This document shows, piece by piece, positions 1-42,108 of a stretch of DNA of 64,000 nt (positions within the stretch are counted from its first letter, which is position 1; every line of letters starts with the position of its first letter). The stretch is taken from the NCBI RefSeq assembly GCF_003334355.1, contig NZ_QOWP01000005.1. One strand, written 5' to 3'. The notes beneath the pieces were generated by a model that worked only from the letters and a program-made list of their open reading frames with translations, did no database searches and was not told the origin of the DNA. A program made the translations under genes and the position numbers. Origin of the DNA: Escherichia coli (GTDB lineage Bacteria; Pseudomonadota; Gammaproteobacteria; Enterobacterales; Enterobacteriaceae).

Positions 1-1330
1 TGGTCAGGCGACCGTTTGCCATAATGCCCATGCTTTCCAGCCAGCGTTCAAACTCCGGTGACGGGCGCAGGTTGAGTAACTGACGCACAGTGGCGGTATC
101 GTGGAATGCGGTGGTCTGGTAGTTGAGCATGATGTCATCACCCAGCGGCATCCCCATGATGTAGTTGCAGCCTGCGGTGGCGAGCAGGATCATCAGGTTT
201 TCGTTGAGGTTCTGGTCAGCGTCAGCGTGGTTGGTATAACAGCAGTCACAGCCCATAGAGATGCCACTCAGCTTGCCCATAAAGTGATCTTCTAAGCCAG
301 CACGGATAATCTGGCGGTCGTTGTAGAGATACTCCGGCCCAATAAAGCCGACCACGGTGTTGACGATAAACGGATCGTAATGACGCGCCAGCCCGTAGTT
401 ACGTGCTTCCATCGTTACCTGGTCTGCGCCGAAGTTAGCGCCAGCGGATAGCGCAGAGCCTTGTCCGGTTTCGAAGTAGAGGCAGTTTTCCCCGGCGATA
501 CGGTTGAACTCCGCGCCCACTGCGCGCGCTTCGTCGAGCATCGCCAGCTCCACGCCAAACTCTTTCAGCCCTTTTTCGCTGCCACAGATACTCTGGAAAA
601 TCAGCCCGCCCGGTGCGCCACGACGGATCGCTTCGATCTGGGTGGTGACGTGCGCCAGTACACAGCCCTGAGTTGGGATGTTGAATTTGTCGATCACGCC
701 ATAGATGGTATCCAACACGCGGCTTAAGTTTTCCACGTCGTCAGTCACCGGGTTAACGCCGATCACCGCATCGCCCACCCCGAAGGAAAGCCCTTCGTAG
801 ATTTGCGCGGCGATACTTTGCACGTCGTCACGGGTGTCATTTGGCTGCAAACGGGCGCTAAAGGTGCCCGGAATACCGATGGTGGTATTGGCCTTTTTGA
901 TTACCGGCATTTTCTTCGCGCCGTAGATCAGGTCCGCGTTGGAGCAAATCTTCGCTACCGCCGCGACCACTTCCGAGGTCAGCCCTTTGCGGGTAAAGGC
1001 AATGTCGTCCACGCTGGTTTCATCGCTCAGCACATACTCACGCAGTTCGCTGATGCTCCAGTTTTTAATCTGGTTGTAGGCCGTTTCGTTAACATCGTCC
1101 TGAATCAGCCGCGTCACGCAGTCATCTTCATAGGCAATCACCGGATTATTGCGGATGTCCGCTACGGTCATTTCCGACAACACCTGCTTTGCCGCCACGC
1201 GCTCCTGTGAGCTTGCCGCTGCGACGCCCGCCAGCACATCCCCCGAACGCAGTTCGTTGGCTTTAGCCAGCACCTCTTTTACATCCTTAAACTGATATAC
1301 ATTGCCGAACAATGTGGTCTTTAGTTTCAT
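1..1330 (-). CDS. eutB: ethanolamine ammonia-lyase large subunit EutB (partial; C-terminal end lies beyond window start)
   Basis: Minus-strand frame beginning MKLKTTLFGNVYQFKDVKEVLAKANE at ~1330 and open to position 1; recognised EutB N-terminus; about 11 nt upstream gap to the eutA stop. Confidence 0.9.
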   Translation of the reverse strand, partial: MKLKTTLFGNVYQFKDVKEVLAKANELRSGDVLAGVAAASSQERVAAKQVLSEMTVADIRNNPVIAYEDDCVTRLIQDDVNETAYNQIKNWSISELREYVLSDETSVDDIAFTRKGLTSEVVAAVAKICSNADLIYGAKKMPVIKKANTTIGIPGTFSARLQPNDTRDDVQSIAAQIYEGLSFGVGDAVIGVNPVTDDVENLSRVLDTIYGVIDKFNIPTQGCVLAHVTTQIEAIRRGAPGGLIFQSICGSEKGLKEFGVELAMLDEARAVGAEFNRIAGENCLYFETGQGSALSAGANFGADQVTMEARNYGLARHYDPFIVNTVVGFIGPEYLYNDRQIIRAGLEDHFMGKLSGISMGCDCCYTNHADADQNLNENLMILLATAGCNYIMGMPLGDDIMLNYQTTAFHDTATVRQLLNLRPSPEFERWLESMGIMANGRLT

Positions 1331-1341
1331 AAGTCGTTCCC

Positions 1342-2745
1342 TCAGGAAGGAAATGCGAGTGATTTCACCGTCACCGGCACAACCGATCCGCCAAAAAGAG
1401 GCGTACCAATGTCGATATAGTCCCCCGCGCGGACAATCACTTCGTCAATGACTGCCAACGGGAGTTGTTGTAGCTGTGGGCGCAACAACATGCCCAGAGC
1501 TTTACCAAAGTCCTGCCCGGCCACCACCAGCAGGGGATGCGGATTCGGAAAACGCGCGACGAAATCGACCAACGCGTTGATGACCGTCAGTACCGCGGCG
1601 TAACGCACAGGCAGCGAGGCGGGAAGCGCCAGCACGTACGCGTCAGTTTTGGGATCAAGATCCAGCTGAATCAGCGCCTGTTGCCAGGCCCCCACCAGAT
1701 CCGTTTCATCAATCGGGATCGCCACCGGCAAATTGCGCAGCGGCAGTTGTACGCCCTCAAGCCAGATTGTGCTGCCAGAGAGCGAAAGGGTATGCGCGCC
1801 CGCGCCAATCACCGTGGCGCGCACGGTTTGCGCCGGAAACTGTACGTTCATCTCACGCAGGCGCGGATGGTCATGCAGCGCAGTTGCCAGCAGCGGGCCA
1901 ATATCGGCAAAACAGAACGGGTCGGCGGGCTGGTGGCGATAACATTCGCCCACGCCGCCAGAAAGCGTAATGATTTCGGGCGTAACACCTGCGGGCAGCA
2001 AACCGGTTTGCATCAATGCCTGCGCGAGCGGTGAGAGCGTTCCGTCAATCACTTCGACAATCAGTTCTGCCATCCGCCGGGTCACCTGCACCAGCTGCGC
2101 GCCGGTCAGCGAACGGGCGTCGGTGCCTGCACCGAAGCACTCATCCACAATCATCTGCCCCGGTTTATGAGCGTAAACCACGCGCCCGTGGCTGTCGGTT
2201 TCCAGCAGGCGACCACCGACGTTGAGGCAGGCAGTGCCGCTGATTTTTCCGGCATCGAACAGGGCGTAGTTCGCGGTGCCACCGCCGATGTCGATATTCA
2301 GTACCCGACACAGCCGTTGTTCAGAAAGGGTTTGTGCCCCGGCTCCGTGACCGGCGATCACGGATTCGAGGTGCGGCCCGGCGCTGGCAACGACAAAATC
2401 GCCCAGCGACTGAGAGAGCGCCATCACCGCCGGGCGAGCATTGCGGGTTTTCGCGCTTTCACCGGTGATGATGATGGCACCAGAATCAACGCTTTCCGGC
2501 TCAATACCCGCAGCATGATATTGCTCGAGTATTAAGGTTTTCAGTTCCGCTTCTTTTAAACCGCCCTGTTTATCGACAGGGGTAAAGAACACCGGACTTT
2601 GCCAGCTAATTTCGCGTTTAATGAATTCGTAGCGCGGCACCTGCGACACCGCCGCACGGTTAACCAGCTCCAGCCGGGAGAAAATCACCTGGGTGGTGGT
2701 GGTGCCGATATCGATACCGACGCTCAATAGCTGGCGAGTGTTCAC
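1342..2745 (-). CDS. eutA: ethanolamine ammonia-lyase reactivase EutA
   Basis: 467-aa ORF from track; apparent GTG start; sequence recognised as EutA. Confidence 0.93.
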   Translation of the reverse strand: MNTRQLLSVGIDIGTTTTQVIFSRLELVNRAAVSQVPRYEFIKREISWQSPVFFTPVDKQGGLKEAELKTLILEQYHAAGIEPESVDSGAIIITGESAKTRNARPAVMALSQSLGDFVVASAGPHLESVIAGHGAGAQTLSEQRLCRVLNIDIGGGTANYALFDAGKISGTACLNVGGRLLETDSHGRVVYAHKPGQMIVDECFGAGTDARSLTGAQLVQVTRRMAELIVEVIDGTLSPLAQALMQTGLLPAGVTPEIITLSGGVGECYRHQPADPFCFADIGPLLATALHDHPRLREMNVQFPAQTVRATVIGAGAHTLSLSGSTIWLEGVQLPLRNLPVAIPIDETDLVGAWQQALIQLDLDPKTDAYVLALPASLPVRYAAVLTVINALVDFVARFPNPHPLLVVAGQDFGKALGMLLRPQLQQLPLAVIDEVIVRAGDYIDIGTPLFGGSVVPVTVKSLAFPS

Positions 2746-3968
2746 GATTGTGCCTCCGCTTCGGTTTTAGTCGCGGTCGCGTCTTCTTTTGGCACCAGCA
2801 TCATCGCCACGCCAATCGCCGTTACGCCGCCGATCAACTTGCCGACAATCATCGGGAAGATCATGGCGTTCATGTTGGCAGCGGCGAAGCCTAAGTGGTC
2901 GCCCAGGGCGAAAGCAGCGGAAACGGCGAAGGCGCAGTTGATGACTTTGCCGCGGGTATCCATCTGCTTCATCATGCCGAACATCGGGATGTTGTTGGCA
3001 AGCGTTGCCACCATGCCGGCTGCCGCGATGTTGTTCATATTCAGTACTTTACCGACGCTCATCAGCGGTTTTTCAAACCAGCGAGTCAGCAGCAGCACCA
3101 TCGGATACGCCCCTAACAGAACGCAGGAGATAGAACCGATAACTTCAATGGCGCGCATCACCTCACCGGGTTTATCGCCAGGGGCCATAAAGATAGGATC
3201 CAGACCGGGGATCAGTTCCCAGCCAAGCAGGAATTTCACTACCGCAGCGGCAAGACCGAGGGTGATCAATGCAACGAGGAATTTGGCGAAGATCTGGAAG
3301 CCGTTGATCATTTTTTCCGGGATGAATTTCAGCCCCAGCGCCACCAGAATCGCAACAATGATCACCGGGATCATGTTCATCAGGATCAGGGCGAAAGTGA
3401 ATTCCACCGGCTGGCCGTTGATCTGCACACCGGAGTACATAGCAACCAGACCACCAGCGATACAACCAATCGGAATGGTCACAATGCCCGCCAGCACGCC
3501 GAGCGCCAGATAACGACGGTCAGAAGGTTCGATAATGCCGAGCGCCACCGGAATGGAAAACACAATCGTTGGCCCCATCATCGACCCGAGAATTAACCCA
3601 GAGTATAGCCACGCGGCTACGTCGCCGCCCGCCAGCTCTTTGGCGAGGAAGAAGCCGCCCATATCGCACGCCAGCAGTGTTCCGGCGAACATCGATGGGT
3701 TAGCGCCGAGCATTTCGTAAACCGGAATAATTACCGGCCCGAGAACGTGAGCCAGTACCGGTGCCAGCGCGGTCATACCGACCATCGCCAGGCCCAGTGC
3801 GCCCATTGCCATAAAGCCTTCTTCGAACTGACCGCCTGATCCTTCGATACTTTTACCGAACTTACCGAGGAAACGAGCAGAACCGCCGAACTGCGACAGG
3901 ATCCTGTCTACGGCAGCTATCAGCATAAAGAACATCATGATGTACATGATGATTTCGTTAATTCCCAT
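2742..3968 (-). CDS. eutH: ethanolamine permease/facilitator EutH
   Basis: 408-aa highly hydrophobic ORF; overlaps eutA start by 4 nt; recognised as EutH. Confidence 0.93.
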   Translation of the reverse strand: MGINEIIMYIMMFFMLIAAVDRILSQFGGSARFLGKFGKSIEGSGGQFEEGFMAMGALGLAMVGMTALAPVLAHVLGPVIIPVYEMLGANPSMFAGTLLACDMGGFFLAKELAGGDVAAWLYSGLILGSMMGPTIVFSIPVALGIIEPSDRRYLALGVLAGIVTIPIGCIAGGLVAMYSGVQINGQPVEFTFALILMNMIPVIIVAILVALGLKFIPEKMINGFQIFAKFLVALITLGLAAAVVKFLLGWELIPGLDPIFMAPGDKPGEVMRAIEVIGSISCVLLGAYPMVLLLTRWFEKPLMSVGKVLNMNNIAAAGMVATLANNIPMFGMMKQMDTRGKVINCAFAVSAAFALGDHLGFAAANMNAMIFPMIVGKLIGGVTAIGVAMMLVPKEDATATKTEAEAQS

Positions 3969-3983
3969 CGCCTTTACTCCCTG

Positions 3984-4184
<201 letters not shown>

Positions 4185-5372
4185 TTATTGCGCCGCTGCG
4201 TACAGGCCGACAATCTGCTCCAGGCTGGCGGTACGCGGGTTACTGCGCAGACAAATATCTTCCAGCGCGGCCTGCGCCCATGCGCCGTAATGCGCAGATG
4301 TCGCACCAACATCGCCCAGTCGTTTACCAATCCCAACTTCCGCAATCAGCTCACTTACCGCGTTAATAGCGTCACGATCGTCGGATTTTTTAGTTCGCAG
4401 TGCCCGACCAATCTGACTAAAGCGTTCACGACAAACCATCCGGTTAAATTCCATCACCGTTGGCAGCAACATGGCGTTCGCGAGACCGTGCGGAATATGC
4501 AGCGCCGCGCCCGGCTGATGCGCCATCGCGTGGCACAACCCAAGACCCGCACTGGAAAACGCCATTCCCGCCATACATGAAGCCAGTAACATGCTCTCGC
4601 GCGCGGCAAGGTCGTGACCGTAGCCCACCGCTTTCGGCAGCGATTTGCCAATCATCGCAATGGCACCAATCGCCAGGCTGTCGGTAAACGGTGTAGCGTT
4701 CAGGGCGCTGTATGCTTCAATGGCATGGGTTAACGCATCAATGCCGGTCATCGCCGTGACATGCGACGGCACACCTTCGGTCAATGCGGCGTCGAGGATC
4801 GCCACATCCGGCATCAGCGAGGCATGGGCTAACACCTGCTTGCGCCCGCTCACCGCGTCGATAATCACCGTTACATTGGTGGTTTCAGAGCCGGTTCCGG
4901 CGGTCGTTGGAATGGCAATCAGCGGCAAGCGCGGTTGCAGAACGCTGGTTTCTGACATCTCTGCCAGCGTGCTATCGGGGTTCGTCACCAGCAACGCCAC
5001 GGCTTTCGCCGCATCCAGCACCGAGCCGCCGCCAAATGCGATCACCCCATCACAGCCTGACTCACGCAACTGCGCCACGGCTGCACACACGTCGGTAATG
5101 CACGGTTCGCCCACCGGACATGGCCAGAGCGTCATGGCGATGCCTTTAACAGCCAGGCTGCGCGTCAGCCCGGCGGTCATCCCCGCCTGATGCAAAAAGC
5201 TGTCTGCCATCACGAACAGATGTTTCAGCCCACGCGTTTGCGCTTGCTGCCCGCAACTGCTCACCGCGCCCGGACCGCAAAGCGTCACCGGTGGAACGCT
5301 AAATGTTTTTACCCGTTGCAGATTCAGGGTATCGAACGCCTGAAAGAGCGCGGTCTGCAATTCATTTTGCAT
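4185..5372 (-). CDS. eutG: iron-containing alcohol dehydrogenase EutG
   Basis: ORF track 4185..5399; start trimmed to internal Met (MQNELQTALFQ) giving 395 aa; Fe-ADH family sequence. Confidence 0.9.
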   Translation of the reverse strand: MQNELQTALFQAFDTLNLQRVKTFSVPPVTLCGPGAVSSCGQQAQTRGLKHLFVMADSFLHQAGMTAGLTRSLAVKGIAMTLWPCPVGEPCITDVCAAVAQLRESGCDGVIAFGGGSVLDAAKAVALLVTNPDSTLAEMSETSVLQPRLPLIAIPTTAGTGSETTNVTVIIDAVSGRKQVLAHASLMPDVAILDAALTEGVPSHVTAMTGIDALTHAIEAYSALNATPFTDSLAIGAIAMIGKSLPKAVGYGHDLAARESMLLASCMAGMAFSSAGLGLCHAMAHQPGAALHIPHGLANAMLLPTVMEFNRMVCRERFSQIGRALRTKKSDDRDAINAVSELIAEVGIGKRLGDVGATSAHYGAWAQAALEDICLRSNPRTASLEQIVGLYAAAQ

Positions 5373-6198
5373 ATAGCCCCTCCGCTTTCTCTCGCCCACT
5401 ACTGGCGATCGCCAGCGGGGTCATAAACAAACTGTGCTGCGGTAAATGCACCTGTAACGCCGGGAATTGTTTGCGAAACAGTTCCGCCACGCCCGGTTGC
5501 AAACAAGAGCCGCCCGCCAGCCATAAATCAGTAATGCCCTGCCCTTCAATATGCCGGGCGACAATGTCCGCCATTTTTTCGTACACCGGTTTCACCGCAG
5601 GCCAAATCTCTTCACCGTGACCGCGCTTGTACTGCTCCGCCTCTTCCAGCGAAATACGGCGATTTCCGGCGAGAGTCAGAGAGATGTGATGTCCGCCGGT
5701 GGCTTCATCCGCCGAGTACGTCACCTTGCCCTTTTTCACGATGGCAATGCCGGTAGTGCCGCCGCCGATATCCACTACACCGGCGTTGTCCAGTTGCAGC
5801 AGATCCGCAACTGCGGTTGGCTCATCCAGCACATGGCTCACTTCCAGCCCGGCAGATTCCAGCACGTTGATGGAAATACGCGGGTCCGTACCTGGAGGAA
5901 ATGAAGTCGCCGCATGGCTAAAACGAAGACCGAATTGCTGCTCAAGAGTGTCGAGATGGCGACGAACAATGGTGACCGCACCGAAGAAATCCCAGACGAT
6001 GCCGTCGCGGACCACATCGGCCCAGTCGAGGCATACCGCCACCGGCTGACCGTCGCGGTCAACAACCATCGACACCACATCGCAGGTGCCCAGATCCACC
6101 CCCAGCCACAGCGGAGATTCCGTCGCGGCGGGCGTCTGGTTACACAGCGTTGCCGCCGTTTGCAGACGTGGGGTGAGCCATTGTTCGTCGTGCGCCAT
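5362..6198 (-). CDS. eutJ: ethanolamine utilisation chaperone-like protein EutJ (actin/Hsp70 fold)
   Basis: 278-aa ORF; overlaps eutG start; recognised as EutJ. Confidence 0.93.
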   Translation of the reverse strand: MAHDEQWLTPRLQTAATLCNQTPAATESPLWLGVDLGTCDVVSMVVDRDGQPVAVCLDWADVVRDGIVWDFFGAVTIVRRHLDTLEQQFGLRFSHAATSFPPGTDPRISINVLESAGLEVSHVLDEPTAVADLLQLDNAGVVDIGGGTTGIAIVKKGKVTYSADEATGGHHISLTLAGNRRISLEEAEQYKRGHGEEIWPAVKPVYEKMADIVARHIEGQGITDLWLAGGSCLQPGVAELFRKQFPALQVHLPQHSLFMTPLAIASSGREKAEGLYAK

Positions 6199-6208
6199 CT
6201 GTTACTCC

Positions 6209-7612
6209 TTAAACAATGCGAAACGCATCGACTAATACACAGCGACGCAGACGGACAAACGTACGCGCGCTGGTTACCCCTTCACCGGTTGGCGTGGTGA
6301 TGGTCATGGTGGTCCAGCCTTCCCCGCCCAGCCCCAGCCCGGCAATGCACGGTCCGTTCTTAACGAAAATGCTGGTATCAATAGCATTCGCCATCTGGTT
6401 CATGTTTTCGATGTTGCGCGAGTGCATTGCCGCCGTGTGGTGGCAACCGCCTTCCAGTTTCACCGCCAGCGCAATGGCATCCGCCACGTTGGCGACGCGC
6501 ACGACGGGCAGCACCGGCATCATCAGTTCGGTCACGGCAAACGGATGTTCTGCAGTGGTTTCCACAAACAGCAAACGCGTTTCTTGCGGCACGTTCAGGC
6601 CGATTGCCGCCGCGATTTTCGCCGCATCGCGACCAACCCAGTCACGGCTGACGGTGCCTTTTCCGCGCTCGTCGATATTTTTCAGCAACACCGGTTGCAG
6701 CTGCTGCGCCTGTTCTGCGGTCAGTTTCACCGCGTGCTGGCCTTCCATCAGACGCATCAGTTCATCGGCTACGCTATCAACAACAATCAGTACCTTTTCG
6801 TCGGCACAAATGATGTTGTTATCGAAAGAAGCGCCTTTGACGATGGACTGAGCGGCACGGGCGAGGTCGGCGGTTTCATCCACCACTACCGGCGGGTTGC
6901 CAGCGCCTGCGGCAATCAGACGTTTATTGGTGTGTTTACGCGCCGCTTCTACTACCGCTTCGCCGCCGGTCACCACCAGAAGGCCGATGCCCGGAAACTT
7001 GAACAAACGCTGCGCGGTTTCGATATCCGGATTTGCCACAGTAACCAGTAAGTTTTCCGGCCCGCCTGCGGCAACAATCGCCTGGTTGAGCAGCGTGATC
7101 GCCCGCTGGGAGACTTTTTTCGCCGCCGGATGCGGGGCAAAAATGACGCTGTTGCCCGCGGCAATCAGGCTGATGGCGTTATTAATTACGGTTGCCGCCG
7201 GGTTAGTGGACGGAGTTACCGAAGCCACCACGCCCCAGGGCGCGTTTTCAATTAAAGTCAGGCCGTTGTCGCCGGTCAGCACCTGCGGAGAGAGACACTC
7301 AACGCCTGGCGTGCCGCGCGCCTGAGCGACGTTTTTGGCAAATTTATCTTCAACGCGGCCCATGCCGGTTTCACTGACGGCAAGTTCCGCTAAATCTCTG
7401 GCGTGTTTTTCGCCTGCCTCACGAATGGCAGCAATGGCTAACTGGCGCATTGCCACGCTTTTTAACCCTTGCTGGGCGACTTTGGCTGCCGCAACGGCGT
7501 CATCCAGGGACGCGAAAACGCCCATCTCATGAACGGCGGCGGGCGGCATGTCACTGCTTTGCATTTTCAGCAGTACCGCTTTCACCACCTGTTCAATATC
7601 CTGTTGATTCAT
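6209..7612 (-). CDS. eutE: CoA-acylating acetaldehyde dehydrogenase EutE
   Basis: 467-aa ORF; aldehyde dehydrogenase family; recognised as EutE. Confidence 0.93.
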   Translation of the reverse strand: MNQQDIEQVVKAVLLKMQSSDMPPAAVHEMGVFASLDDAVAAAKVAQQGLKSVAMRQLAIAAIREAGEKHARDLAELAVSETGMGRVEDKFAKNVAQARGTPGVECLSPQVLTGDNGLTLIENAPWGVVASVTPSTNPAATVINNAISLIAAGNSVIFAPHPAAKKVSQRAITLLNQAIVAAGGPENLLVTVANPDIETAQRLFKFPGIGLLVVTGGEAVVEAARKHTNKRLIAAGAGNPPVVVDETADLARAAQSIVKGASFDNNIICADEKVLIVVDSVADELMRLMEGQHAVKLTAEQAQQLQPVLLKNIDERGKGTVSRDWVGRDAAKIAAAIGLNVPQETRLLFVETTAEHPFAVTELMMPVLPVVRVANVADAIALAVKLEGGCHHTAAMHSRNIENMNQMANAIDTSIFVKNGPCIAGLGLGGEGWTTMTITTPTGEGVTSARTFVRLRRCVLVDAFRIV

Positions 7613-7623
7613 GATGTTCTGCC

Positions 7624-7911
7624 TTATTTGTGGAAAATTACCTGACCGCCAGACACCACCTCATCGACAATGCCAATCACGCACAGATCGACCGGTGACG
7701 TTTCGCTTTTATGCGCCTGGCGGGCGGAACTGCCACTCACCAGTAACACCCACTCCCCGGTCCCCGCGCCAATATTGTCGATGGCGACGGCGCATTGCCC
7801 GTCAGGATTACCTTGTGAATCAATCATTTCCACCATCAGCAATTTGTCATGCGCCAGTCCGTGATGGCGTACGGTACAAACAATTTGTCCAGTGACGACT
7901 GCCAGTTTCAT
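7624..7911 (-). CDS. eutN: microcompartment vertex protein EutN (EutN/CcmL family)
   Basis: 95-aa ORF MKLAVVTGQIVCTVRHHG; recognised as EutN. Confidence 0.93.
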   Translation of the reverse strand: MKLAVVTGQIVCTVRHHGLAHDKLLMVEMIDSQGNPDGQCAVAIDNIGAGTGEWVLLVSGSSARQAHKSETSPVDLCVIGIVDEVVSGGQVIFHK

Positions 7912-8017
7912 ACCCGCCTCCGTGGCGTATTTCAGGTAAAAGCTCCCCCTACCCTCCGCAGAAGGTAAAATGAAAAAGGAGAGAGCGTGACGCCCGAATC
8001 GACGTCACACAGGGTGA

Positions 8018-8311
8018 TTACAGGTTGCTGCTATCGCCTTTCAGGCCGATCGGGAAGACTTCTTCCAGGTCGCCGTGCGGACGCGGGATAACGTGTACAG
8101 ATACCAGCTCGCCGATACGCTGTGCCGCTGCGGCACCTGCATCGATCGCGGCTTTACAGGCTGCAACATCACCACGAACCATGGCAGTACACAGGCCGCC
8201 GCCAATCTGCTTAACACCAACCAGCTTGACGCGCGCAGCTTTCACCATCGCGTCAGAAGCCTCAATCAGTGCAACCAGGCCCCGGGTTTCGATCATTCCT
8301 AATGCTTCCAT
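8018..8311 (-). CDS. eutM: microcompartment shell protein EutM (BMC-H domain)
   Basis: ORF track 8018..8353 trimmed to [18 protein letters not shown] (97 aa); canonical BMC shell protein. Confidence 0.93.
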
Positions 8312-8349
8312 TGTGCTTTCCTCTTTATCAGGGTCCAGAACGGGACCGT

Positions 8350-9366
8350 TCATTCAACCAGTGTTTGTAAACTGCTTTCGCGGTTCACTTCTGTCTGACG
8401 CGGCACAGCTGCCACCAGCGCCAGCTCGATAATTTCCTGCACGCTACAACCACGAGAGAGATCGTGCATCGGCGCGGCAAGTCCTTGTATCAGTGGCCCG
8501 ACGGCACGATATCCGCCGAGTCGTTGTGCGATTTTGTAACCAATATTTCCGGCTTCCAGCGACGGAAAAACCATCACATTGGCCTTGCCCTGTAGCGGGC
8601 TGGCAGGCGCTTTTTGCGCCGCCACTTCCGGCACGAAGGCGGCGTCAAACTGTAACTCGCCATCCACCACCAGCTTTGGTGCGCGCTCACGGACGATTTC
8701 TGTCGCCTGCTGGACGTTAGCAACACAGGGGTGACGGGCGCTACCATTGCTGGAAAACGACAGCATCGCCACGCGCGGCTCTTCTCCGGTGATGGCGCGC
8801 CAGGTTTCGGCACTGGCAAGCGCGATATCCGCCAGCTGCGCCGCCGTCGGCTGTGGCACCACGCTGCAATCGGCAAAGCCCAACGCCGGGCCGCTGTACT
8901 GTGGCAACATCAGGAAAATGGAAGAGAGCGTTTTACAGCCTGGCTGCAAGCCGATAATGCGTAATCCGGCACGCAGCACATTTGCCGTGGAAGAGAGGTT
9001 GCCCGCGATACAGACATCCGCTTTACCGGCGCTGACCATTGCTGCGGCGAACATCAGAGGGTCGGTAAGTTTTTCCAGCGCATCCGGCGGCGTTTTTTCG
9101 CCCGCGCGGGCCAGCCAGCGATGAGCAAATTCTTCCCGCATTGCGAGGTTGCCATGCGGATCAATCACCTGTAGCCCGTCCATCGCCACGCCGTGACTGA
9201 GCGCAAACTGACGAAGTTCAAACGGATTGGCGACCAGAATGGGCGTTGCCAGACCTTGTTGATGTAAATATTGCGCGGCTTTCAGCACACGTTGGTCTAA
9301 CGCATCCGGAAAAACCACTCTGGCGGGCGCTCGCAACGCCAGTTCACGACAACGTTCAATAATCAT
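8350..9366 (-). CDS. eutD: phosphotransacetylase EutD
   Basis: 338-aa ORF; Pta-like sequence; overlaps eutM region by 4 nt in the track. Confidence 0.93.
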
Positions 9367-10165
9367 TGCGTTCCCCCAGTCGTTGTTGGATCTGCTTCAC
9401 CGTTAGCGGCTGCTTCGTTACGCTCAGGATCATCATCACGTAGACCGTGCTGGAAAGGCGGTTCAGCGCCTGCAAAATGTCCGGGCGTAATACTTCAAAG
9501 CTGCGGGTGATAAAGACCTGCGCCGCTACGGTTTCGGTTTCCCGCACTTTGGTGCGTAGCAGATTGAGCAACGCAGCATCGCGCCCGTGGCTGGCTTCCG
9601 GCACCAGATGATCGTGGTCGAGATAGCGCAGCGGCTGATGAGAAAGCCGATGCAGATCTTCGTCAGAAAGCCCGACAATCGCCTGGCAGCCCAGCGGTTC
9701 CCCCAGCGCATCGGCGCGCATAATGTTGCCAAGACGCGAACGGATATCCGCCAGCCACGGCTGCCACGGTTCCGCCAGTTCAATTTGCAGCCACACTACC
9801 AGCGCAATGGTGCTGTCGAGAACCGCGCGAAAACCCAGACGCGGATCGCTTTTGGCGACCATTTTTTCCGCCGACAGGTGAGTCAGCGTATCCGGCTTTT
9901 TTGCCACCGGCTGGCGACACAGTTCGCAGCACGCCTGCGGATGTTCATCGCTACTGGTCAGCCCATGAACGGGCTGCGGCTGCTGCTGTTCATCGTCAAC
10001 AAACAGGCGGCCCTGCTCGTCAATAAACTTGATGCGCAGATGGCGGCTTTCCAGCAACTCCCGGGCAGAGGGCGTCAGGCGACTGTCCGCAGGGAGATGG
10101 ATCTCTGCGCCTTCGCTGAGCGTATGGTTCGCTCTTAGCCATGCTTCGGTGATGAAATCTTTCAT
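9356..10165 (-). CDS. eutT: EutT corrinoid adenosyltransferase
   Basis: [22 protein letters not shown] recognised as EutT; exact start not verified. Confidence 0.88.
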
Positions 10166-10863
10166 AGGGATTGCCAGTTAGCCGGCCAGGCGACATACAG
10201 GAATTTCACGCTGGATGTCGTACCAAATTCGATGCTGGAGCCTTTCGGGATAAACATCACGTCGCCTGCTTTGGCGATCATGGTTTGGCCTTCGTGGCGA
10301 ACATGCAGCTCCCCTTCCAGCACCATGTCGATTTCGTCGTAGTTCAGGGTCCACGGGAAGAATGCGTTCTCCCACTGCATAAAACCGGCGGCCATGCTGC
10401 TGCCGTCGTCTCCGGTCACAAGATCAGTCAAGCCCACGCAATGCGGCTCTGCGCCGTCGAAACGACCAAACTTGACGCTACTGCCATCAATCACTTTGAT
10501 GCCGCCTTTGCCGGTCACCGATTTGAAGCTCGGCTGCATTGCGCCCTGCTCCAGCGACTGTTTTTCCTTCATCACTTTTTCCATCAGCTGTGCGACCAGG
10601 CTTTCGGTAAACTGGCCTTCCGGCAGCTGGGCAATGATGGTTTCGCGGATGCGCTGGCTTTCGGTTTTGTCGGCTGGCACGCTGGCGGGCACGGACGCCG
10701 TTACCGGGATCGATTCATCACATTCGGTGATGGTAAAACCCAGTAGATCCGCCACTTCACGGGCTTCCGGGGTAATAATGCTGGCGCGCAGAACCACGGA
10801 CATTGCCTGTTCGCCGCGCGCGTGTGCTTCACGAATATCATTCGCTGTGATGAGTTTTTTCAC
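10162..10863 (-). CDS. eutQ: ethanolamine utilisation protein EutQ (cupin domain)
   Basis: 233-aa ORF; recognised as EutQ; 4-nt overlap with eutT. Confidence 0.92.
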   Translation of the reverse strand: MKKLITANDIREAHARGEQAMSVVLRASIITPEAREVADLLGFTITECDESIPVTASVPASVPADKTESQRIRETIIAQLPEGQFTESLVAQLMEKVMKEKQSLEQGAMQPSFKSVTGKGGIKVIDGSSVKFGRFDGAEPHCVGLTDLVTGDDGSSMAAGFMQWENAFFPWTLNYDEIDMVLEGELHVRHEGQTMIAKAGDVMFIPKGSSIEFGTTSSVKFLYVAWPANWQSL

Positions 10864-11317
10864 CTGCTTCCTCCTGTTTGGTGAGAGATGCCAGATAATC
10901 CACCAGTTGCTGCACGCTTTGCGGGTCGTGGCTGTTTAGCACGAAAATCGGCTCTTCGAAACCCGTCTCAAGCAATAACTTTCGCGTTGCGGCGACGTCA
11001 GCATCTGGCATGTCCGTTTTACTGATGACGGCGATTTGCCGTTTGCTGACGCCAATATCCAGCAACCCGGCAGGCAACCGACTTTCCGGGTCATTTGCGC
11101 CATGGACATAGATCAGCATGTCTACATCCTGTAGCGTGGTAATTAAGGCGTGATACCAGCGGGGATGGTTAAAATATTCACCCGGCGTATCAATATCGCC
11201 CTTATCATTAAATTCCACGGCCTGTGTTTTTCTGGCGAGGGTATAATTCCCCTGCAACGCATTAAATAACGTTGTTTTTCCTGCCCCGACGCTACCCACA
11301 AACGCAATTCGTTTCAT
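10838..11317 (-). CDS. eutP: ethanolamine utilisation GTPase/acetate-kinase-like protein EutP
   Basis: 159-aa ORF with Walker A GSVGAGKTT; 26-nt overlap with eutQ. Confidence 0.92.
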   Translation of the reverse strand: MKRIAFVGSVGAGKTTLFNALQGNYTLARKTQAVEFNDKGDIDTPGEYFNHPRWYHALITTLQDVDMLIYVHGANDPESRLPAGLLDIGVSKRQIAVISKTDMPDADVAATRKLLLETGFEEPIFVLNSHDPQSVQQLVDYLASLTKQEEAGEKTHHSE

Positions 11318-11329
11318 GAATGCCTCGTA

Positions 11330-11665
11330 TTAACTTTTGGTCATTTCACAAAGCGTATAATTTAATAAGCGACCTAAACCGCTGACGGTTTGTGATAACG
11401 CTTCTTCTACTGCGCCCACCGAGCCATAAATCACCAATGCACCGCTGAATCGGTCGAGAAAACCGATATGCACATCAGCGGCTTTCAGCGCTAAATCACC
11501 GGCGATCATCGCCGTTTCGCCGGGAGTTAGCGTCATAATGCCAATTGCGCCCGCATCCGGAACGCCGATTTTCTTCGCCAGTTCCTCACCGGGATGCGCG
11601 ATGAGATGCGCCAGTGTGACCTGTTTGCCGGGCACAAATTCCTGAATGATGCGTTCTTTATCCAT
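11330..11665 (-). CDS. eutS: microcompartment shell protein EutS (permuted BMC domain)
   Basis: ORF track 11330..11737 trimmed to [15 protein letters not shown] (111 aa); first gene of the eut operon. Confidence 0.9.
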
Positions 11666-26726: not shown

Positions 26727-27088
26727 AACAACCTCTCTTATAATTATGGGTATTCTACGGAAACAATATACCGTGGTGAAGCTAATTTACTCGATTGCTG
26801 CGATGACTACCTCCGGGGGACAAACCTTATGTAAATACTATGGTCCTGCGGTGATAATTTGTATGTGATACACAGCAACATTTCGAGATATTCATACGGC
26901 ATCTAATACTGATTTAATTCTGGTTAAAATACAGACAGATAACAAGATGAATATTCTTAATGTTTACGTTAAAAATGTTTAACATTATTTAATAGTTGTT
27001 AATTTGAATACTTCGATAATGTTATATTTCCTGATAATCATTTGCAGGCAAAATGTTTTCACCCTTAAATGAGTATTTATTCTCATAG

Positions 27089-27463
<375 letters not shown>

Positions 27464-27466
27464 TCT

Positions 27467-28594
27467 ATGTCGTGCCCGGTTATTGAGCTGACACAACAGC
27501 TTATTCGCCGCCCTTCCCTGAGTCCTGATGACGCAGGATGCCAGGCTTTGTTGATTGAACGTTTGCAGGCGATCGGTTTTACCGTTGAACGCATGGATTT
27601 TGCCGATACGCAGAATTTTTGGGCATGGCGTGGGCAAGGTGAAACGTTAGCCTTTGCCGGGCATACCGACGTGGTGCCGCCTGGCGACGCCGATCGTTGG
27701 ATCAATCCGCCGTTTGAACCGACCATTCGTGACGGCATGTTATTCGGGCGCGGCGCGGCAGATATGAAAGGCTCGCTGGCGGCGATGGTGGTAGCAGCAG
27801 AGCGTTTTGTCGCACAACATCCCAACCATACGGGGCGACTGGCATTTCTGATCACCTCTGATGAAGAAGCCAGTGCCCACAACGGTACGGTAAAAGTCGT
27901 CGAGGCGTTAATGGCACGTAATGAGCGTCTCGATTACTGCCTGGTCGGCGAACCGTCGAGTATCGAAGTGGTAGGTGATGTGGTGAAAAATGGTCGTCGC
28001 GGATCATTAACCTGCAACCTCACCATTCATGGCGTTCAGGGGCATGTTGCCTACCCGCATCTGGCTGACAATCCGGTACATCGCGCAGCACCTTTCCTTA
28101 ATGAATTAGTGGCTATTGAGTGGGATCAGGGCAATGAATTTTTCCCGGCGACCAGTATGCAGATTGCTAATATTCAGGCGGGAACGGGCAGTAACAACGT
28201 TATTCCGGGTGAACTGTTTGTGCAGTTTAACTTCCGCTTCAGCACCGAACTGACTGATGAGATGATCAAAGCACAGGTGCTTGCCCTGCTTGAAAAACAT
28301 CAACTGCGTTATACGGTGGACTGGTGGCTTTCCGGGCAGCCATTTTTGACCGCGCGCGGTAAACTGGTGGATGCGGTCGTTAACGCGGTTGAGCACTATA
28401 ATGAAATTAAACCGCAGCTACTGACCACAGGCGGAACGTCCGACGGGCGCTTTATTGCTCGCATGGGGGCGCAGGTGGTGGAACTCGGGCCGGTCAATGC
28501 CACTATTCATAAAATTAATGAATGTGTGAACGCTGCCGACCTGCAGCTACTTGCCCGTATGTATCAACGTATCATGGAACAGCTCGTCGCCTGA
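27467..28594 (+). CDS. dapE: succinyl-diaminopimelate desuccinylase DapE
   Basis: 375-aa ORF; M20 peptidase family sequence recognised. Confidence 0.95.
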
Positions 28595-28621
28595 TGAGTG
28601 GTTCTGCAAGAGGAAATAAGC

Positions 28622-28822
28622 ATGGACTGGCTGGCTAAATATTGGTGGATTCTGGTGATTGTCTTTTTGGTAGGCGTCCTGCTGAACGTGATTAAAGATC
28701 TCAAGCGCGTCGACCATAAGAAATTTCTCGCCAACAAGCCGGAGCTTCCCCCGCATCGTGATTTCAACGATAAGTGGGACGATGACGACGACTGGCCGAA
28801 AAAGGATCAACCGAAGAAGTAA
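28622..28822 (+). CDS. ypfN: small membrane protein YpfN (UPF0370)
   Basis: ORF track trimmed to [18 protein letters not shown] (66 aa); acidic C-terminal tail. Confidence 0.85.
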
Positions 28823-28837
28823 GCTGAGTGCTCAACC

Positions 28838-28918
28838 GTAGGCCGGATAAGGCGTTAACGCCGCATCCGGCAATGGTGAACGATGCCTGATGCGACGCTC
28901 ACGCGTCTTATCAGGCCA
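28838..28918. repeat. REP pair between ypfN and ypfH
   Basis: GCCGGATAAGGCGTTAACGCCGCATCCGGCA and GCCTGATGCGACGCTCACGCGTCTTATCAGGCC read directly. Confidence 0.85.
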
Positions 28919-28931
28919 GGTAATCTGTCTT

Positions 28932-29630
28932 TTACATCATTTCAATCACATCATCATCGCCAGGCTTACCGCCACTTAGCGCTTCGTCGAAATAATGTTT
29001 CGGAATGGTATAACGCAAGTGATCCAGGGCAAATTGCATACTGCGATTGTCGATCGCATGGCCTAAATCCTCCACGATATCCAGCGTCACGTCACCACCG
29101 GCACTGATTAACGCTTCCTGCGCCGCAACCGCATGCGCCAGATCGATAACCGGATCTTCACCACCATGAATCAAGTGAATTGTTGTGGCTGTAGACGCGG
29201 TTTCCGGCAGGCTCGCATAGCGTCCGTTAAAGGCAATGACGCGCGAAGCAAGGCCCGGTTCGGCTTTAATGCTCTCCAGCGCCATAATCGCGCCTTGTGA
29301 GAAACCAATTAGCGCCGTGGCATTAGCCCCTACTCCGCTCTGTTTCTGCCAGTAGCGTACCGTCTCAATAAACGTCGGCATGATGGCATCCACACGCGCC
29401 TGGCGATTATCTTCCGTAATACCCTGCACCGAAAACCACTGACGCCCCGCCGGATTACCGCTCGGCTCCGCGCCACCGACACTCACCACCAGCGCATCAG
29501 GAAACAGCGGTGCAAACCAGCTACCTATTTCCCCCATTGCCACCGGGTTATCCCCGACACCGTGGAAAAGCAGTAACAACTGTTGCGCAGGTTTATCCGG
29601 GCTTTGAACAACAAAATGGTCATGTTTCAT
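28932..29630 (-). CDS. ypfH: esterase YpfH (alpha/beta hydrolase)
   Basis: ORF track trimmed to MKHDHFVVQSP (232 aa); GFSQG nucleophile-elbow motif. Confidence 0.9.
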   Translation of the reverse strand: MKHDHFVVQSPDKPAQQLLLLFHGVGDNPVAMGEIGSWFAPLFPDALVVSVGGAEPSGNPAGRQWFSVQGITEDNRQARVDAIMPTFIETVRYWQKQSGVGANATALIGFSQGAIMALESIKAEPGLASRVIAFNGRYASLPETASTATTIHLIHGGEDPVIDLAHAVAAQEALISAGGDVTLDIVEDLGHAIDNRSMQFALDHLRYTIPKHYFDEALSGGKPGDDDVIEMM

Positions 29631-29703
29631 GGCGAACTCCTTAACTGATGTCATTAATTTTACGCCGCTGACTCACAATGACCATGGGAGAAAATTGAAG
29701 GAG

Positions 29704-31719
29704 TCAGTGAAAAAATTGCCATTGCGTTATGCGATCGCGCAGACGCTCAGTGCGAACCTCATTAAGTGCGAACAGCGCCTGCGCGGCCTCTTCCCGCTGG
29801 CGAACCAGTAACATCTTGCGGCCTGAAAGTTTAAGTGTGGTACATAACTGCGCGTCGCTGACGTTTTTCTGTAAACGCCCACGCAGCGCCGGTAATGCCA
29901 GTTCACTGGTTTGTAGCATACGCAATAAGCAACCTAACGATGTTAATAGCGGACGATGAGCGAAAGCAAAACCGGCCAGTTCAAGCCAGTCGTCGTCAGA
30001 AAGGACGGCATCGTTTAGTGGATCAACAGGAAGCGTTTCGCCATTCCACTTTGCGAGAGCTTGCGCATCGCGACGTAAACGGTAATGCTCACGTTCAGCC
30101 AGTTGTTTACCCGCATTACTCATCGGTAACAGCGCCATCGCCGTATAGCAACCGCTGCTGGCTTCACGATGATTACCCATCCGCACCAGCACAAAACCGC
30201 AGCGGTGCCAGAAACGCCATAACTCCCCGGTGTAACCAAAACTCACCGAAAGATAGTCGAGGTCACGCGTATATTGCAAAGCACCAGCAATAAGTTGCTG
30301 CCCTGTGCCTTCCCGCTGACGCGCCGGATGAACTGCTATCCGGCTGACCCGCCGTCCACGCAATGTCGCTGCCAGTGGATTGCTACCGTGCGCCGCCAGC
30401 GACTGGGCCACCAGATTACCCCGCGGGCGACGAAAACCTGCCCATACCGCCTGACTGAGTTGTTGAGATAATCCCCCCTCATCCACCAGCCACAGCGCTC
30501 CGGCAATCTCGTTTTCGCCAGCCGCCTGTAAAAAATATTGCCCTGGTGCATCCATCATCCGGCGTAAATCCAGCGGCGAAGTCCGGTAGTGCGCACCAGA
30601 CAATAACTGATAAACCTTTAACGGCGTTTCTGGCTCGCTTCGCCATAACGTTTGTTCAAATGCGGAAATGACGATATTGCCTTGTGGTGTATGGGTGAAG
30701 TTTTCATCGTCAAAAACCAGTGCCTCACTAACCATTTTTTCCAGCGGGCATCCCTGTGCCCAGCGGATCGGCTGTTGCAGTTCAAAACGGTGTAAATGCG
30801 GAAAGCGAGCGCAAAATTTCAGCAAAAAACCACGTCCGGTGCCTTCGTAGCCCTGCACCGTAGTGGTTAACAACGTTCGAGGAAAACGCGATACCAGTTG
30901 ATGCAACAACGGCGCAGGTATGGCTGCGGCTTCGTCGACCACCAGCCAGTCGGCTTGCTCATCGCTGGCTAACAAGGCATCCGGCGCAATAAAGCGAAAC
31001 TTCTCGCCCGCAAATTGTGCCAGTACATCCGTTGCCGCTTTTGCGGGCGCGGTGACAATCGCACTGCCCGCAATACGAGAAATGAGTTGCCCTGCCAGCG
31101 CCGACTTACCGCGCCCACGCGCAGCCGTTACCGCTGCCACGCCCGGCGGCATGGTCAGTAGCTGCTGTAAGAGTTGCTGTTGTTCTGGTTGTGGTGCGCC
31201 GGTCGCGGGGTGCCAGTCAGTACGGGGAGTAAAATGCGCCAACGAGAACGGCTGGTTTTGCCGCCAGAGGATAGCGTCGTTATCCGCCGTAAGTACGCGT
31301 TTGAGATGCTGGACAAAATGCGGCGTCGCAATAGGGTCAGGGCAATCACTCCAGCGCAGCGAGTCGGCATCAGGTTGGTTTTCCCACTCTTCCCATACAG
31401 GGAGTAACAAAACCAGCCAGCTTCCCGCTTTCAACGTTCCGCTAAGTGCTGCAAAGGCAGCGGCATCAAAGCCGTGGCGGGCGTCGAATACCGCATGCCG
31501 GAACTCGCGCCCAAGTAAAGTTTGTAGTGCCGAGGGAGAACAGTGGTTTTCAGCATCTGGCTGCGGCGAAATCCACAGCCAGTCGCCAGGTAAGGCATCA
31601 CGTAACTTAAGCGCATGATCAAAACACCAACCCTCTTCCCCGCTCAACACCAGCAAGCGGCGGATCCCTTCACGTTTCATTTGCGCTGTTAATGTGTGAA
31701 GCGCAGTCAGTTCAGCCAT
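29704..31719 (-). CDS. tmcA: tRNA(Met) cytidine acetyltransferase TmcA
   Basis: 671-aa ORF; Walker A GRGKSA plus GNAT-like C-terminal region. Confidence 0.92.
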   Translation of the reverse strand: MAELTALHTLTAQMKREGIRRLLVLSGEEGWCFDHALKLRDALPGDWLWISPQPDAENHCSPSALQTLLGREFRHAVFDARHGFDAAAFAALSGTLKAGSWLVLLLPVWEEWENQPDADSLRWSDCPDPIATPHFVQHLKRVLTADNDAILWRQNQPFSLAHFTPRTDWHPATGAPQPEQQQLLQQLLTMPPGVAAVTAARGRGKSALAGQLISRIAGSAIVTAPAKAATDVLAQFAGEKFRFIAPDALLASDEQADWLVVDEAAAIPAPLLHQLVSRFPRTLLTTTVQGYEGTGRGFLLKFCARFPHLHRFELQQPIRWAQGCPLEKMVSEALVFDDENFTHTPQGNIVISAFEQTLWRSEPETPLKVYQLLSGAHYRTSPLDLRRMMDAPGQYFLQAAGENEIAGALWLVDEGGLSQQLSQAVWAGFRRPRGNLVAQSLAAHGSNPLAATLRGRRVSRIAVHPARQREGTGQQLIAGALQYTRDLDYLSVSFGYTGELWRFWHRCGFVLVRMGNHREASSGCYTAMALLPMSNAGKQLAEREHYRLRRDAQALAKWNGETLPVDPLNDAVLSDDDWLELAGFAFAHRPLLTSLGCLLRMLQTSELALPALRGRLQKNVSDAQLCTTLKLSGRKMLLVRQREEAAQALFALNEVRTERLRDRITQWQFFH

Positions 31720-31733
31720 CCCTGCCCCGGAAG

Positions 31734-32597
31734 TTAAATGCTTTTACCAAAAGTATTGCATTGTGCCGGATCGCCGCTGTCGAAACCACGTTTAAACCAG
31801 CTGTAGCGTTGCTGAGAAGTGCCATGAGTGAAACTGTCTGGTACTACTCGCCCCTGACTTTGCTGTTGTAAACGGTCATCGCCGATGGCCTGCGCCGCGT
31901 TCAGCGCCTCTTCCAGATCGCCGGTTTCCAGAACGCCTTGCTGCTGCATACTATGCCCCCAGACACCGGCAAAACAGTCGGCCTGGAGTTCCATACGCAC
32001 AGATAAGCGGTTCACTTCCGCCTGCGTCGCGTTTTGTTGCAGTTGACGAACTTTCGGCTCGATGCCTAACAGTTTCTGCACATGATGACCGACTTCATGG
32101 GCGATAACGTACCCCTGGGCAAAATCGCCATCCGCGCCAAGTTTGTCTTTCATGTCATCATAGAAGGAGAGATCGATATAAACCGTGCCATCCGCCGGGC
32201 AATAGAATGGCCCCATTATGGACTGGCCCGCCCCGCAGCCGGTACGCGTCATTCCACGGTACATGACCAGCTTCGGTTGCTGATAGGTTTTACCCATCTT
32301 CTCGAACTGCTGTCCCCAGGTGTCTTCCGTAGTTGCCAGAATCACCGAGGTGAATTTTGCGGCTTCGTCTTCATTTGGGCTAATTGACCGCGTTGATTGC
32401 TGTTGGGAAACCGGCTGTCCGGTCATCAACCCGGTTAAATCAACGCCATAGTAGCCTGCAACCAGCACGACTATCAGTAAAATCAGCCCGCCTTTACCGC
32501 TCGGCAGGCGAAAACCGGGACCGCCCATAGACGGACCACCAGAGCTGTTGCGCCTGTCTTCAACATTGTCACTTTCACGTCGCCCTTGCCAACGCAT
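31734..32597 (-). CDS. ypfJ: putative zinc metalloprotease YpfJ
   Basis: 287-aa ORF with N-terminal TM segment and HEVGH zinc-binding motif. Confidence 0.88.
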
Positions 32598-32764
32598 AGA
32601 TACCTCAACAATATATTCATTATAGAAATGATCGTAGGTGGTTCACAGGAAGATTACCACAGGAAAGCGGGATGAAATGGCGGAGGAATGAGCGTTCAAT
32701 GCACATCTTCCGAGAGCGGTTGTCTTGCCGTGCCAGCTGCACGGCAAGATGATGAACAGAAAAA

Positions 32765-33478
32765 TCAGTCCAGCTGTACACCCAGGCGGCGGGCGACGGC
32801 TTCATAGGCCTCGATCAGGCCACCGAGGCTCTGGCGGAAACGGTCTTTGTCCATTTTCTCCAGCGTTTCTTTGTCCCACAGGCGGCTGCCGTCCGGAGAG
32901 AACTCATCGCCCAGTACGACTTCACCTTTGTACAGGCCAAACTCCAGCTTGAAGTCGACCAGAATCAGACCAGCATCATCGAACAGTTTTTTCAGCACGT
33001 CGTTCGCTTTGTAGGTCAGCTCTTTCATACGCGCCAGGTTCTCTTTGCTTACCCAGCCAAAGGTTTCGCAGTAAGATTCGTTGACCATCGGATCGTGCAT
33101 GGCGTCGTTTTTCAAGAACAGATCGAACAGCGGCGGGTTCAGCTCAATACCTTCTTCGATTCCAAGACGTTTCACCAGAGAGCCCGCAGCACGGTTACGC
33201 ACGACACACTCAACCGGTACCATATCCAGCTTTTTCACCAGACATTCGGTATCGGAGAGCAGACGCTCCATTTGAGTCGGGATACCCGCTTCAGCCAGTT
33301 TGCTCATAATGAAGTAGTTGAACTTGTTGTTCACCATACCTTTGCGATCAAACTGCTCAATGCGCGCGCCATCCCCTGCTGACGTATCATTGCGGAATTC
33401 GAGCACCAACAGGTCCGGGTTTTCCGTGCTGTATACGGTTTTCGCTTTACCACGATACAACTCAGCTTGCTTTTGCAT
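32765..33478 (-). CDS. purC: SAICAR synthetase PurC
   Basis: ORF track trimmed to [16 protein letters not shown] (237 aa). Confidence 0.95.
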
Positions 33479-39706: not shown

Positions 39707-40653
39707 ATGAGACAAACTCTTTGCGACGGATATCTGGTCATTTTTGCGTTAGCACAGGCCGTGATTCTGCTGATGCTAACCCCACTTTTTACGGGTATTT
39801 CCCGGCAGATACGCGCGCGTATGCACTCCCGCCGCGGGCCGGAGATCTGGCAGGATTATCGCGATATCCACAAACTGTTTAAACGCCAGGAAGTTGCGCC
39901 TATATCTTCAGGTCTGATGTTCCGCCTGATGCCGTGGGTATTAATCAGCAGCATGCTGGTGCTGGCGATGGCCCTACCACTATTTATTACCGTTTCCCTT
40001 TTGCGGGCGGCGGCGATCTGATCACCCTTATCTATCTTCTTGCCCTGTTTCGTTTTTTCTTTGCTCTTTCAGGGCTGGATACCGGAAGCCCGTTTGCGGG
40101 AGTCGGTGCCAGTCGCGAGTTGACGCTCGGCATTCTGGTCGAACCCATGCTCATTCTCTCACTGCTGGTATTGGCGCTGATAGCGGATTCCACGCATATC
40201 GAGATGATCAGCAATACGCTGGCGATGGGCTGGAACTCGCCGCTAACCACCGTACTGGCGTTACTGGCCTGTGGTTTTGCCTGCTTCATAGAGATGGGAA
40301 AAATTCCCTTTGATGTTGCTGAAGCAGAACAGGAATTACAGGAAGGCCCGCTGACCGAATATTCCGGTGCCGGGCTGGCGTTGGCGAAATGGGGACTGGG
40401 GCTGAAACAGGTCGTGATGGCAGCACTGTTTGTGGCCCTGTTTCTGCCCTTTGGGCGCGCGCAAGAACTTTCTCTCACCTGCCTGCTGACTTCACTTGTC
40501 GTTACGCTGCTCAAGGTTTTGCTGATTTTTGTACTGGCTTCAATCGCAGAAAACACGCTGGCACGCGGGCGTTTTTTACTCATTCACCATGTGACCTGGC
40601 TTGGCTTCAGCCTTGCTGCGCTTGCATGGGTCTTCTGGTTAACCGGTCTGTAA
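39707..40653 (+). pseudogene. hyfC: hydrogenase-4 membrane subunit HyfC (NuoH/HycD-like), disrupted by a -1 frameshift at ~39996-40002
   Basis: Two consecutive ORFs in different frames (39686..40021 and 39934..40653) together cover a HyfC-like protein; span is 947 nt, one short of the 948 expected for 315 aa; shift lies in a CCCTTTT tract. Confidence 0.8.
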
Positions 40654-40669
40654 GGAGCACTGACGGAAT

Positions 40670-42108
40670 ATGGAAAATCTTGCTCTGACGACGTTAATGC
40701 TGCCTTTTATCGGCGCACTGGTCGTTTCGTTTTCGCCACAACGTCGGGCCGCCGAATGGGGGTTTTGTTCGCCGCACTGACCACGCTGTGCATGTTGTCG
40801 CTGATCTCCGCGTTTTATCAGGCCGATAAAGTTGCCGTCACGTTGACGTTGGTCAACGTGGGGGATGTGGCATTGTTTGGCCTGGTCATTGATCGCGTGA
40901 GTACGCTGATTCTGTTTGTGGTGGTGTTTCTCGGTTTGCTGGTCACGATCTACTCCACGGGTTATCTGACGGATAAAAATCGCGAACACCCGCATAACGG
41001 CACGAATCGTTATTACGCATTTTTGCTGGTGTTTATCGGCGCGATGGCGGGACTGGTACTCTCCTCGACGCTGCTCGGTCAGTTGTTGTTTTTTGAAATT
41101 ACGGGCGGCTGCTCCTGGGCGTTGATCAGTTATTACCAGAGCGATAAAGCGCAGCGTTCAGCACTAAAAGCGTTACTTATCACTCATATCGGCTCGTTGG
41201 GGTTGTATCTTGCCGCCGCCACGCTGTTTTTGCAGACCGGAACGTTTGCGCTTAGCGCGATGAGCGAGTTACACGGCGACGCACGTTATCTGGTTTATGG
41301 CGGCATCCTGTTTGCCGCGTGGGGGAAATCGGCCCAGCTACCGATGCAAGCGTGGCTACCGGACGCAATGGAAGCGCCAACACCGATCAGCGCCTATCTC
41401 CACGCCGCATCGATGGTGAAAGTGGGCGTTTACATTTTTGCCCGCGCCATTATCGACGGCGGCAATATCCCGCATGTGATTGGCGGCGTTGGCATGGTCA
41501 TGGCCCTGGTCACCATTCTTTATGGATTTCTGATGTATTTACCACAGCAGGATATGAAGCGGTTGCTGGCCTGGTCGACCATCACTCAACTTGGCTGGAT
41601 GTTCTTCGGCTTGTCGCTCTCCATCTTCGGCTCGCGGCTGGCGCTGGAGGGTAGCATCGCCTACATCGTCAACCACGCGTTCGCTAAAAGCCTGTTTTTC
41701 CTTGTAGCAGGTGCGCTGAGTTACAGCTGCGGCACGCGCTTGTTGCCGCGTCTGCGTGGCGTATTGCACACCCTGCCGTTGCCTGGCGTGGGTTTCTGCG
41801 TGGCAGCGCTGGCAATTACCGGCGTGCCGCCGTTCAACGGCTTCTTCAGTAAATTCCCGCTGTTTGCTGCCGGTTTTGCGTTGTCAGTGGAGTACTGGAT
41901 CCTGCTGCCCGCCATGATTCTGCTGATGATTGAATCGGTCGCCAGTTTCGCCTGGTTTATTCGCTGGTTTGGTCGCGTCGTGCCTGGCAAACCGAGCGAG
42001 GCCGTCGCCGATGCCGCACCGCTGCCAGGGTCAATGCGCCTGGTGTTGATTGTACTGATTGTGATGTCGCTGATTTCCAGCGTAATCGCCGCGACCTGGT
42101 TGCAGTAA
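40670..42108 (+). pseudogene. hyfD: hydrogenase-4 membrane subunit HyfD (NuoL/M-like), disrupted by a -1 frameshift at ~40758-40762
   Basis: ATG at 40670 with RBS reads MENLALTTLMLPFIGALVVSFSPQRRAAEW then hits a stop; the remainder continues in another frame (track ORF 40756..42108); span is 1439 nt, one short of 1440 for 479 aa; shift lies in a G5 run. Confidence 0.8.

Follow-up and report, generated by a model that had tools for sequence, protein, structure and literature searches.

The stretch of Escherichia coli DNA analysed here (64,000 bases, referred to as the window) begins within the eut operon for ethanolamine catabolism. The gene for the large subunit of ethanolamine ammonia-lyase, eutB (1-1330, minus strand), is truncated by the window edge: residues 1-443 of MG1655 EutB align at 1330-2 with 100% identity in tblastn, corresponding to codons 1-443 of 453, the final ten falling outside the window. 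Next to it are eutA, encoding the ethanolamine ammonia-lyase reactivase (1342-2745, minus strand, 467 aa), and eutH, encoding the ethanolamine permease (2742-3968, minus strand, 408 aa), both intact and 100% identical in product to MG1655. The upstream rest of the operon, comprising eutG, eutJ, eutE, eutN, eutM, eutD, eutT, eutQ, eutP and eutS (4185-11665, minus strand), was found to be full length with the use of MG1655 proteins as tblastn queries, with 98.7-100% identity and colinear gene order from eutG to eutS. All genes from eutS to eutA are intact in the window, and eutC, eutL, eutK and eutR are located beyond it. Within this block the eutT open reading frame (9356-10165, minus strand) encodes a product of 269 aa, a C-terminal variant two residues longer. 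Compared with MG1655 and the isolate MLI023K1, an A-run at 9371 has lost one base; this 1-nt deletion converts the C-terminus ...LGETQ-stop (267 aa) into ...LGERNDY-stop (269 aa) and makes eutT and eutD overlap by 11 nt instead of 4. Among the genomes compared the deletion is specific to the window; it may be genuine or may reflect a homopolymer error.

The eutB/eutA junction was read directly, and positions 1325-1350 consist of TTTCAT followed by AAGTCGTTCCC and TCAGGAAGG. The start codon of eutB is CAT at 1328-1330 (minus strand, the reverse complement of ATG) and the stop codon of eutA is TCA at 1342-1344 (minus strand). The spacer between them (1331-1341, no strand assigned) is exactly 11 nt long, where the preliminary description had put the two genes about 11 nt apart. 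On the coding strand the spacer reads GGGAACGACTT and is part of the eutB ribosome-binding region GAGGGAA. Adjacent to it lies an 8-bp core, TCAGGAAG (1342-1349, no strand assigned), delimited by comparison with attL and attR of MG1655 and PSS-12, which covers the stop codon of eutA together with the 1.7 codons before it. The core occurs once, between the eutB flank and the eutA flank. Only the 11-nt spacer separates eutB from eutA, with neither an integrase nor any other prophage gene; the window, colinear with MG1655 apart from the prophage, contains no CPZ-55 sequence anywhere in its 64 kb; and no foreign sequence or scar (FRT, loxP, cassette remnant, rearrangement or an endpoint offset from the core) is present at the junction. 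Over 100-310 nt the junction is identical to that of natural isolates and of W3110, and an engineered deletion scar was rejected on these grounds.

In MG1655 the same site is occupied. The genome sequence NC_000913.3 places eutB (b2441) at 2557318-2558679 and eutA (b2451) at 2565481-2566884, and the element annotated as "cryptic prophage CPZ-55" (2558691-2565480, 6,790 bp), with intZ and yffL-yffS (b2442-b2450) on the opposite strand, lies between them, as the preliminary description states. CPZ-55 begins 11 nt from the eutB start and ends at the eutA stop, and the 11 nt that stand ahead of it are the same as in the window. The element is bounded by an 8-bp direct repeat of the core: its eutB-side end reads ...CATAAGTCGTTCCC TCAGGAAG AATCGATG... 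and its eutA-side end ...ACCGCAT TCAGGAAG GAAATGCGAG.... The window and MG1655 share the chromosomal site, and the window holds the target core that is duplicated on integration; the difference is the 6,790-bp element, which is missing from the window.

A 310-nt junction probe was used to survey complete E. coli genomes, the junction being called contiguous when at least 80% of the probe was found in one place. By this definition it is contiguous in 4,962 of the 5,423 genomes matching the probe (~91%), and among the 100% matches are numerous natural isolates of human, animal and water origin. Full-length CPZ-55 was detected in 213 complete genomes (212 at no less than 99% identity), and its carriers among the matches listed are K-12 laboratory strains such as MG1655, MC4100, J53 and similar. 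About 204 further genomes contain only an intZ-like segment of 80-90% identity. The uninterrupted eut operon has been described before (PMC6652756, PMC7617246); in a set of uropathogenic (UPEC) strains the operon was kept in 47 of 47, and a different prophage occupied this site in one of the 47 (PMC6652756). The empty junction is the ordinary majority state in E. coli and is already documented. The earlier statement that the eut operon is uninterrupted at this point is correct, no insertion being present, and describes a common condition rather than an unusual one.

Elements other than CPZ-55 were examined in three of the genomes with intZ-like sequences (PSS-12, PEC408 and 13P460A), and in all three intZ adjoins eutB. 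PSS-12 (NZ_AP027697.1, about 4291511-4303193; L005 5512-17194) carries an 11.7-kb IntZ-family island with the same core and the same flanks, the core being duplicated at both island ends as in MG1655. The cargo of this island (IS1, IS1203, gadC, a murI-like gene and a truncated pyridoxal-dependent decarboxylase gene) is unlike that of CPZ-55; eutH of PSS-12 is 81 bp shorter. In PEC408 (NZ_CM168008.1; L010 12001-22960) eutB adjoins an IntZ island similar to that of PSS-12, after which come three IS1 copies abutting maeB; eutA through eutS are gone and eutL is frameshifted, which suggests that an occupied site can go on to lose most of the eut operon through IS activity. The IntZ/YffL island of 13P460A (NZ_CP019271.1; L011 16582-18288) lies on the eutB side and contains an AIPR-family (abortive-infection-related) protein gene together with large hypothetical genes, so that its cargo is possibly phage defence. 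These three islands, and the prophage of the UPEC strain U71 (PMC6652756), have in common an integrase gene adjoining eutB and the core and flanks; they differ from the window in that their sites are occupied, with variable cargo, whereas the window is unoccupied and its operon intact. Because of the counts of occupied and empty genomes, the islands examined and the UPEC data (PMC6652756), the eutA/eutB site is regarded as a known integration hotspot that is empty by norm.

The empty junction is also encountered among K-12 strains. In the W3110 RefSeq record only the same 11-nt spacer parts eutB (2562764-2564125) from eutA (2564137-2565540), and no base differs from the window in the 100 nt surrounding the junction. 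The junctions of EMG2, C600, DH1 and DH5alpha likewise agree fully with that of the window. Contiguous 100% matches to window positions 1-3000 were obtained for C600, DH5alpha, NEB 5-alpha, HST04, ER1821R, RR1 and a DH1 derivative. CPZ-55 is known to have been lost in EMG2 and W3110 (PMC9997739), and in ER2796 it is gone by precise excision (PMC4444293). The presence of CPZ-55 is therefore not a valid marker of K-12, as W3110, EMG2, C600, DH1, DH5alpha and RR1 are without it, and its absence rules out MG1655-type strains only, not W3110 or K-12 generally. The preliminary description had concluded from the missing prophage that the DNA came from neither MG1655 nor W3110; this conclusion holds for MG1655 and fails for W3110, whose junction is the same. 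The empty junctions of W3110, EMG2, DH1, C600 and most natural E. coli resemble that of the window in the 11-nt spacer and the single core; the K-12 strains among them differ in their flanks, the 64 kb of the window being of non-K-12 type (mosaic, 99.2-99.3% identity). A separate peculiarity was noted in AG100 (NZ_LN832404.1) and two K-12 records of identical length, which have no CPZ-55 and contain a 90-bp perfect tandem duplication covering the spacer and the eutA 3' end (L002 1831-2010), giving rise to a spurious 75-nt "EutA" CDS. This duplication is probably an artefact of reference-guided assembly and not a biological scar.

The background of the window was assessed by its alignment over 62.7 kb with MG1655 minus CPZ-55. 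The two are colinear, with 307 + 156 = 463 mismatches and several 1-nt indels, and the only structural exception to colinearity over the 64 kb is a 48-nt difference in hyfG. The mismatches fall into blocks, some stretches having 0-2 differences per kb and others 15-28; the densest divergence, up to 28 per kb, was observed at 4000-8000 and 27000-33000 (e.g. eutG-eutN, and tmcA, whose product differs in 22 aa). Such a block mosaic is the recombination pattern expected between natural E. coli lineages, and we know of no K-12 derivatives that differ from one another on this scale. The near-identity to MG1655 with only isolated SNPs that is expected of a K-12 lineage was not observed, and identity to W3110 over the first 25 kb is 99.7%. 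A K-12 origin had been considered in view of the first 3 kb, which are 100% identical to many K-12 strains, and was ruled out by the whole-window alignment with MG1655. Judged by sequence comparison, the window represents a natural gut isolate lineage and not K-12 in any form.

In megablast searches spanning the window, no complete RefSeq genome was identical over the full length; the nearest records were MLI023K1/K2, PRO_A-1412-6M-A_ESBL and PSS-12, with 99.9-100% identity per segment. MLI023K1, from human stool (Mali), is colinear over all 64,000 bases with 99.92% identity, differing by 51 mismatches and one gap (52 differences across an alignment of 64,001 columns); its eutB/eutA junction is empty in the same way. 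PSS-12, from human stool (Ecuador), shows 10 differences in 25 kb. Relative to MG1655, hyfC and hyfD (39707-42108) each have a 1-nt deletion, at about 39996 and 40758, respectively, and are frameshifted. The frameshifts are common to the window, MLI023K1 and PSS-12, and RefSeq annotates the genes as pseudogenes in both isolates. Because the two isolates have the same frameshifts, we take the lesions to be real and lineage-specific and not sequencing errors, and hydrogenase 4 looks to be inactivated in this natural lineage. The hyfG difference (about 45509-45548) is likewise common to the three sequences, in which HyfG is predicted to have 571 aa; the MG1655 gene is 48 nt (16 codons) shorter and encodes 555 aa. 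A tandem duplication as the source of these 48 nt was rejected, since Tandem Repeats Finder detected nothing at 45300-45750. With colinearity, identity of at least 99.9% and common lineage lesions all found, we place the source strain in the lineage represented by MLI023K1 and PSS-12.

Since there is one copy of the repeat and neither a scar nor foreign sequence, the junction is interpreted as an unoccupied attachment site. We assign a probability of about 0.95 to the reading that the native attB of CPZ-55 and other IntZ-family elements lies unoccupied at positions 1331-1349, and that the eut operon around it is uninterrupted and belongs to a natural E. coli outside K-12. Three kinds of observation contrary to it (foreign sequence at the junction, flanks almost without divergence from MG1655 and an insertion in most natural E. 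coli) were looked for and none was found. The same arrangement could be produced in a K-12 derivative from which CPZ-55 had been removed, either by a scarless deletion as in the MDS series or by precise excision as in W3110, EMG2, DH1, C600 and ER2796. Precise excision is known in K-12 lineages and would yield exactly this junction (PMC4444293, PMC9997739), and over the first 3 kb, junction included, the window cannot be told from K-12 strains without CPZ-55. Beyond about 4 kb the resemblance breaks down, with the blocks of divergence from MG1655 described above, the hyfC/hyfD frameshifts, the 48-nt hyfG difference and the W3110 identity of 99.7% all opposing this origin, and natural isolates, above all MLI023K1 over the full 64 kb, match far better; a K-12 derivative is accordingly very improbable. 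The reduced-genome K-12 derivative proposed in the preliminary description is excluded because the 463 mismatches lie in mosaic blocks; the prophage-free natural isolate that it proposed alongside agrees with the identity to MLI023K1 and with the mosaic divergence from MG1655. Of the two outcomes that its suggested check was to tell apart, a deletion scar was not found, and the junction is a native one shared with non-K-12 strains. An assembly artefact, in which a collapsed or mis-joined contig skipped a real insertion, might be suspected from odd public records at this junction, namely the 90-bp duplication of AG100 and a 36-bp excess in EA2. The junction of the window is nevertheless identical base for base to that of thousands of independently assembled complete genomes, and the reading frames to either side of its one core copy are intact, which leaves such an artefact a negligible probability.

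The history of the site within the lineage is a different matter. The lineage may once have harboured an IntZ-family island, recently removed by precise site-specific excision. PSS-12, which is about as close to the window as MLI023K1, carries its 11.7-kb island at the core, indicating that occupancy changes within the lineage, and precise excision of CPZ-55 is on record (PMC4444293). A site that was never occupied and one vacated by precise excision would, however, have the same sequence, and MLI023K1 is likewise empty at the site. With the empty state being the majority in E. coli, parsimony favours a loss in the window no more than a gain in PSS-12. As two equally close relatives differ in occupancy, the lineage may plausibly have either gained or lost an island, and we consider a recent loss in the ancestry of the window rather unlikely.

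Under the reading as a native unoccupied attB, the putative recombinase would be the P4-like tyrosine integrase IntZ, recombining the element into the core TCAGGAAG. Action of IntZ on the core is proposed because two different elements with an intZ gene are each bounded by a duplicated core and because precise excision has been reported (PMC4444293). Integration duplicates the core and keeps both coding sequences as well as the eutB Shine-Dalgarno sequence GAGGGAA, and the inserted element parts eutA from eutB by several kb of oppositely oriented DNA (6.8 kb for CPZ-55). With nothing inserted, eutS-eutA and eutB would be co-transcribed from the upstream eut promoter, provided that the operon is functional here, with translation of eutB predicted to start 11 nt past the eutA stop.

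The empty site itself was already known in the literature, and the natural origin of this DNA is shown by the divergence of the flanks and not by the absence of CPZ-55. In MG1655-type K-12 the insertion of CPZ-55 is reported to stop functional eut expression, as in BW25113 (PMC7617246). The source strain has the ancestral uninterrupted eut operon, and ethanolamine ammonia-lyase is probably expressible from the operon promoter, unlike in MG1655 and BW25113 (PMC7617246). A further-reaching idea, which we consider doubtful, is that the core acts as a fast-turnover landing pad within one clonal lineage and that eut catabolism is switched by integration and excision of IntZ islands, the window representing the "on" state. 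If this were true, ethanolamine catabolism would be turned off and on in natural gut populations.
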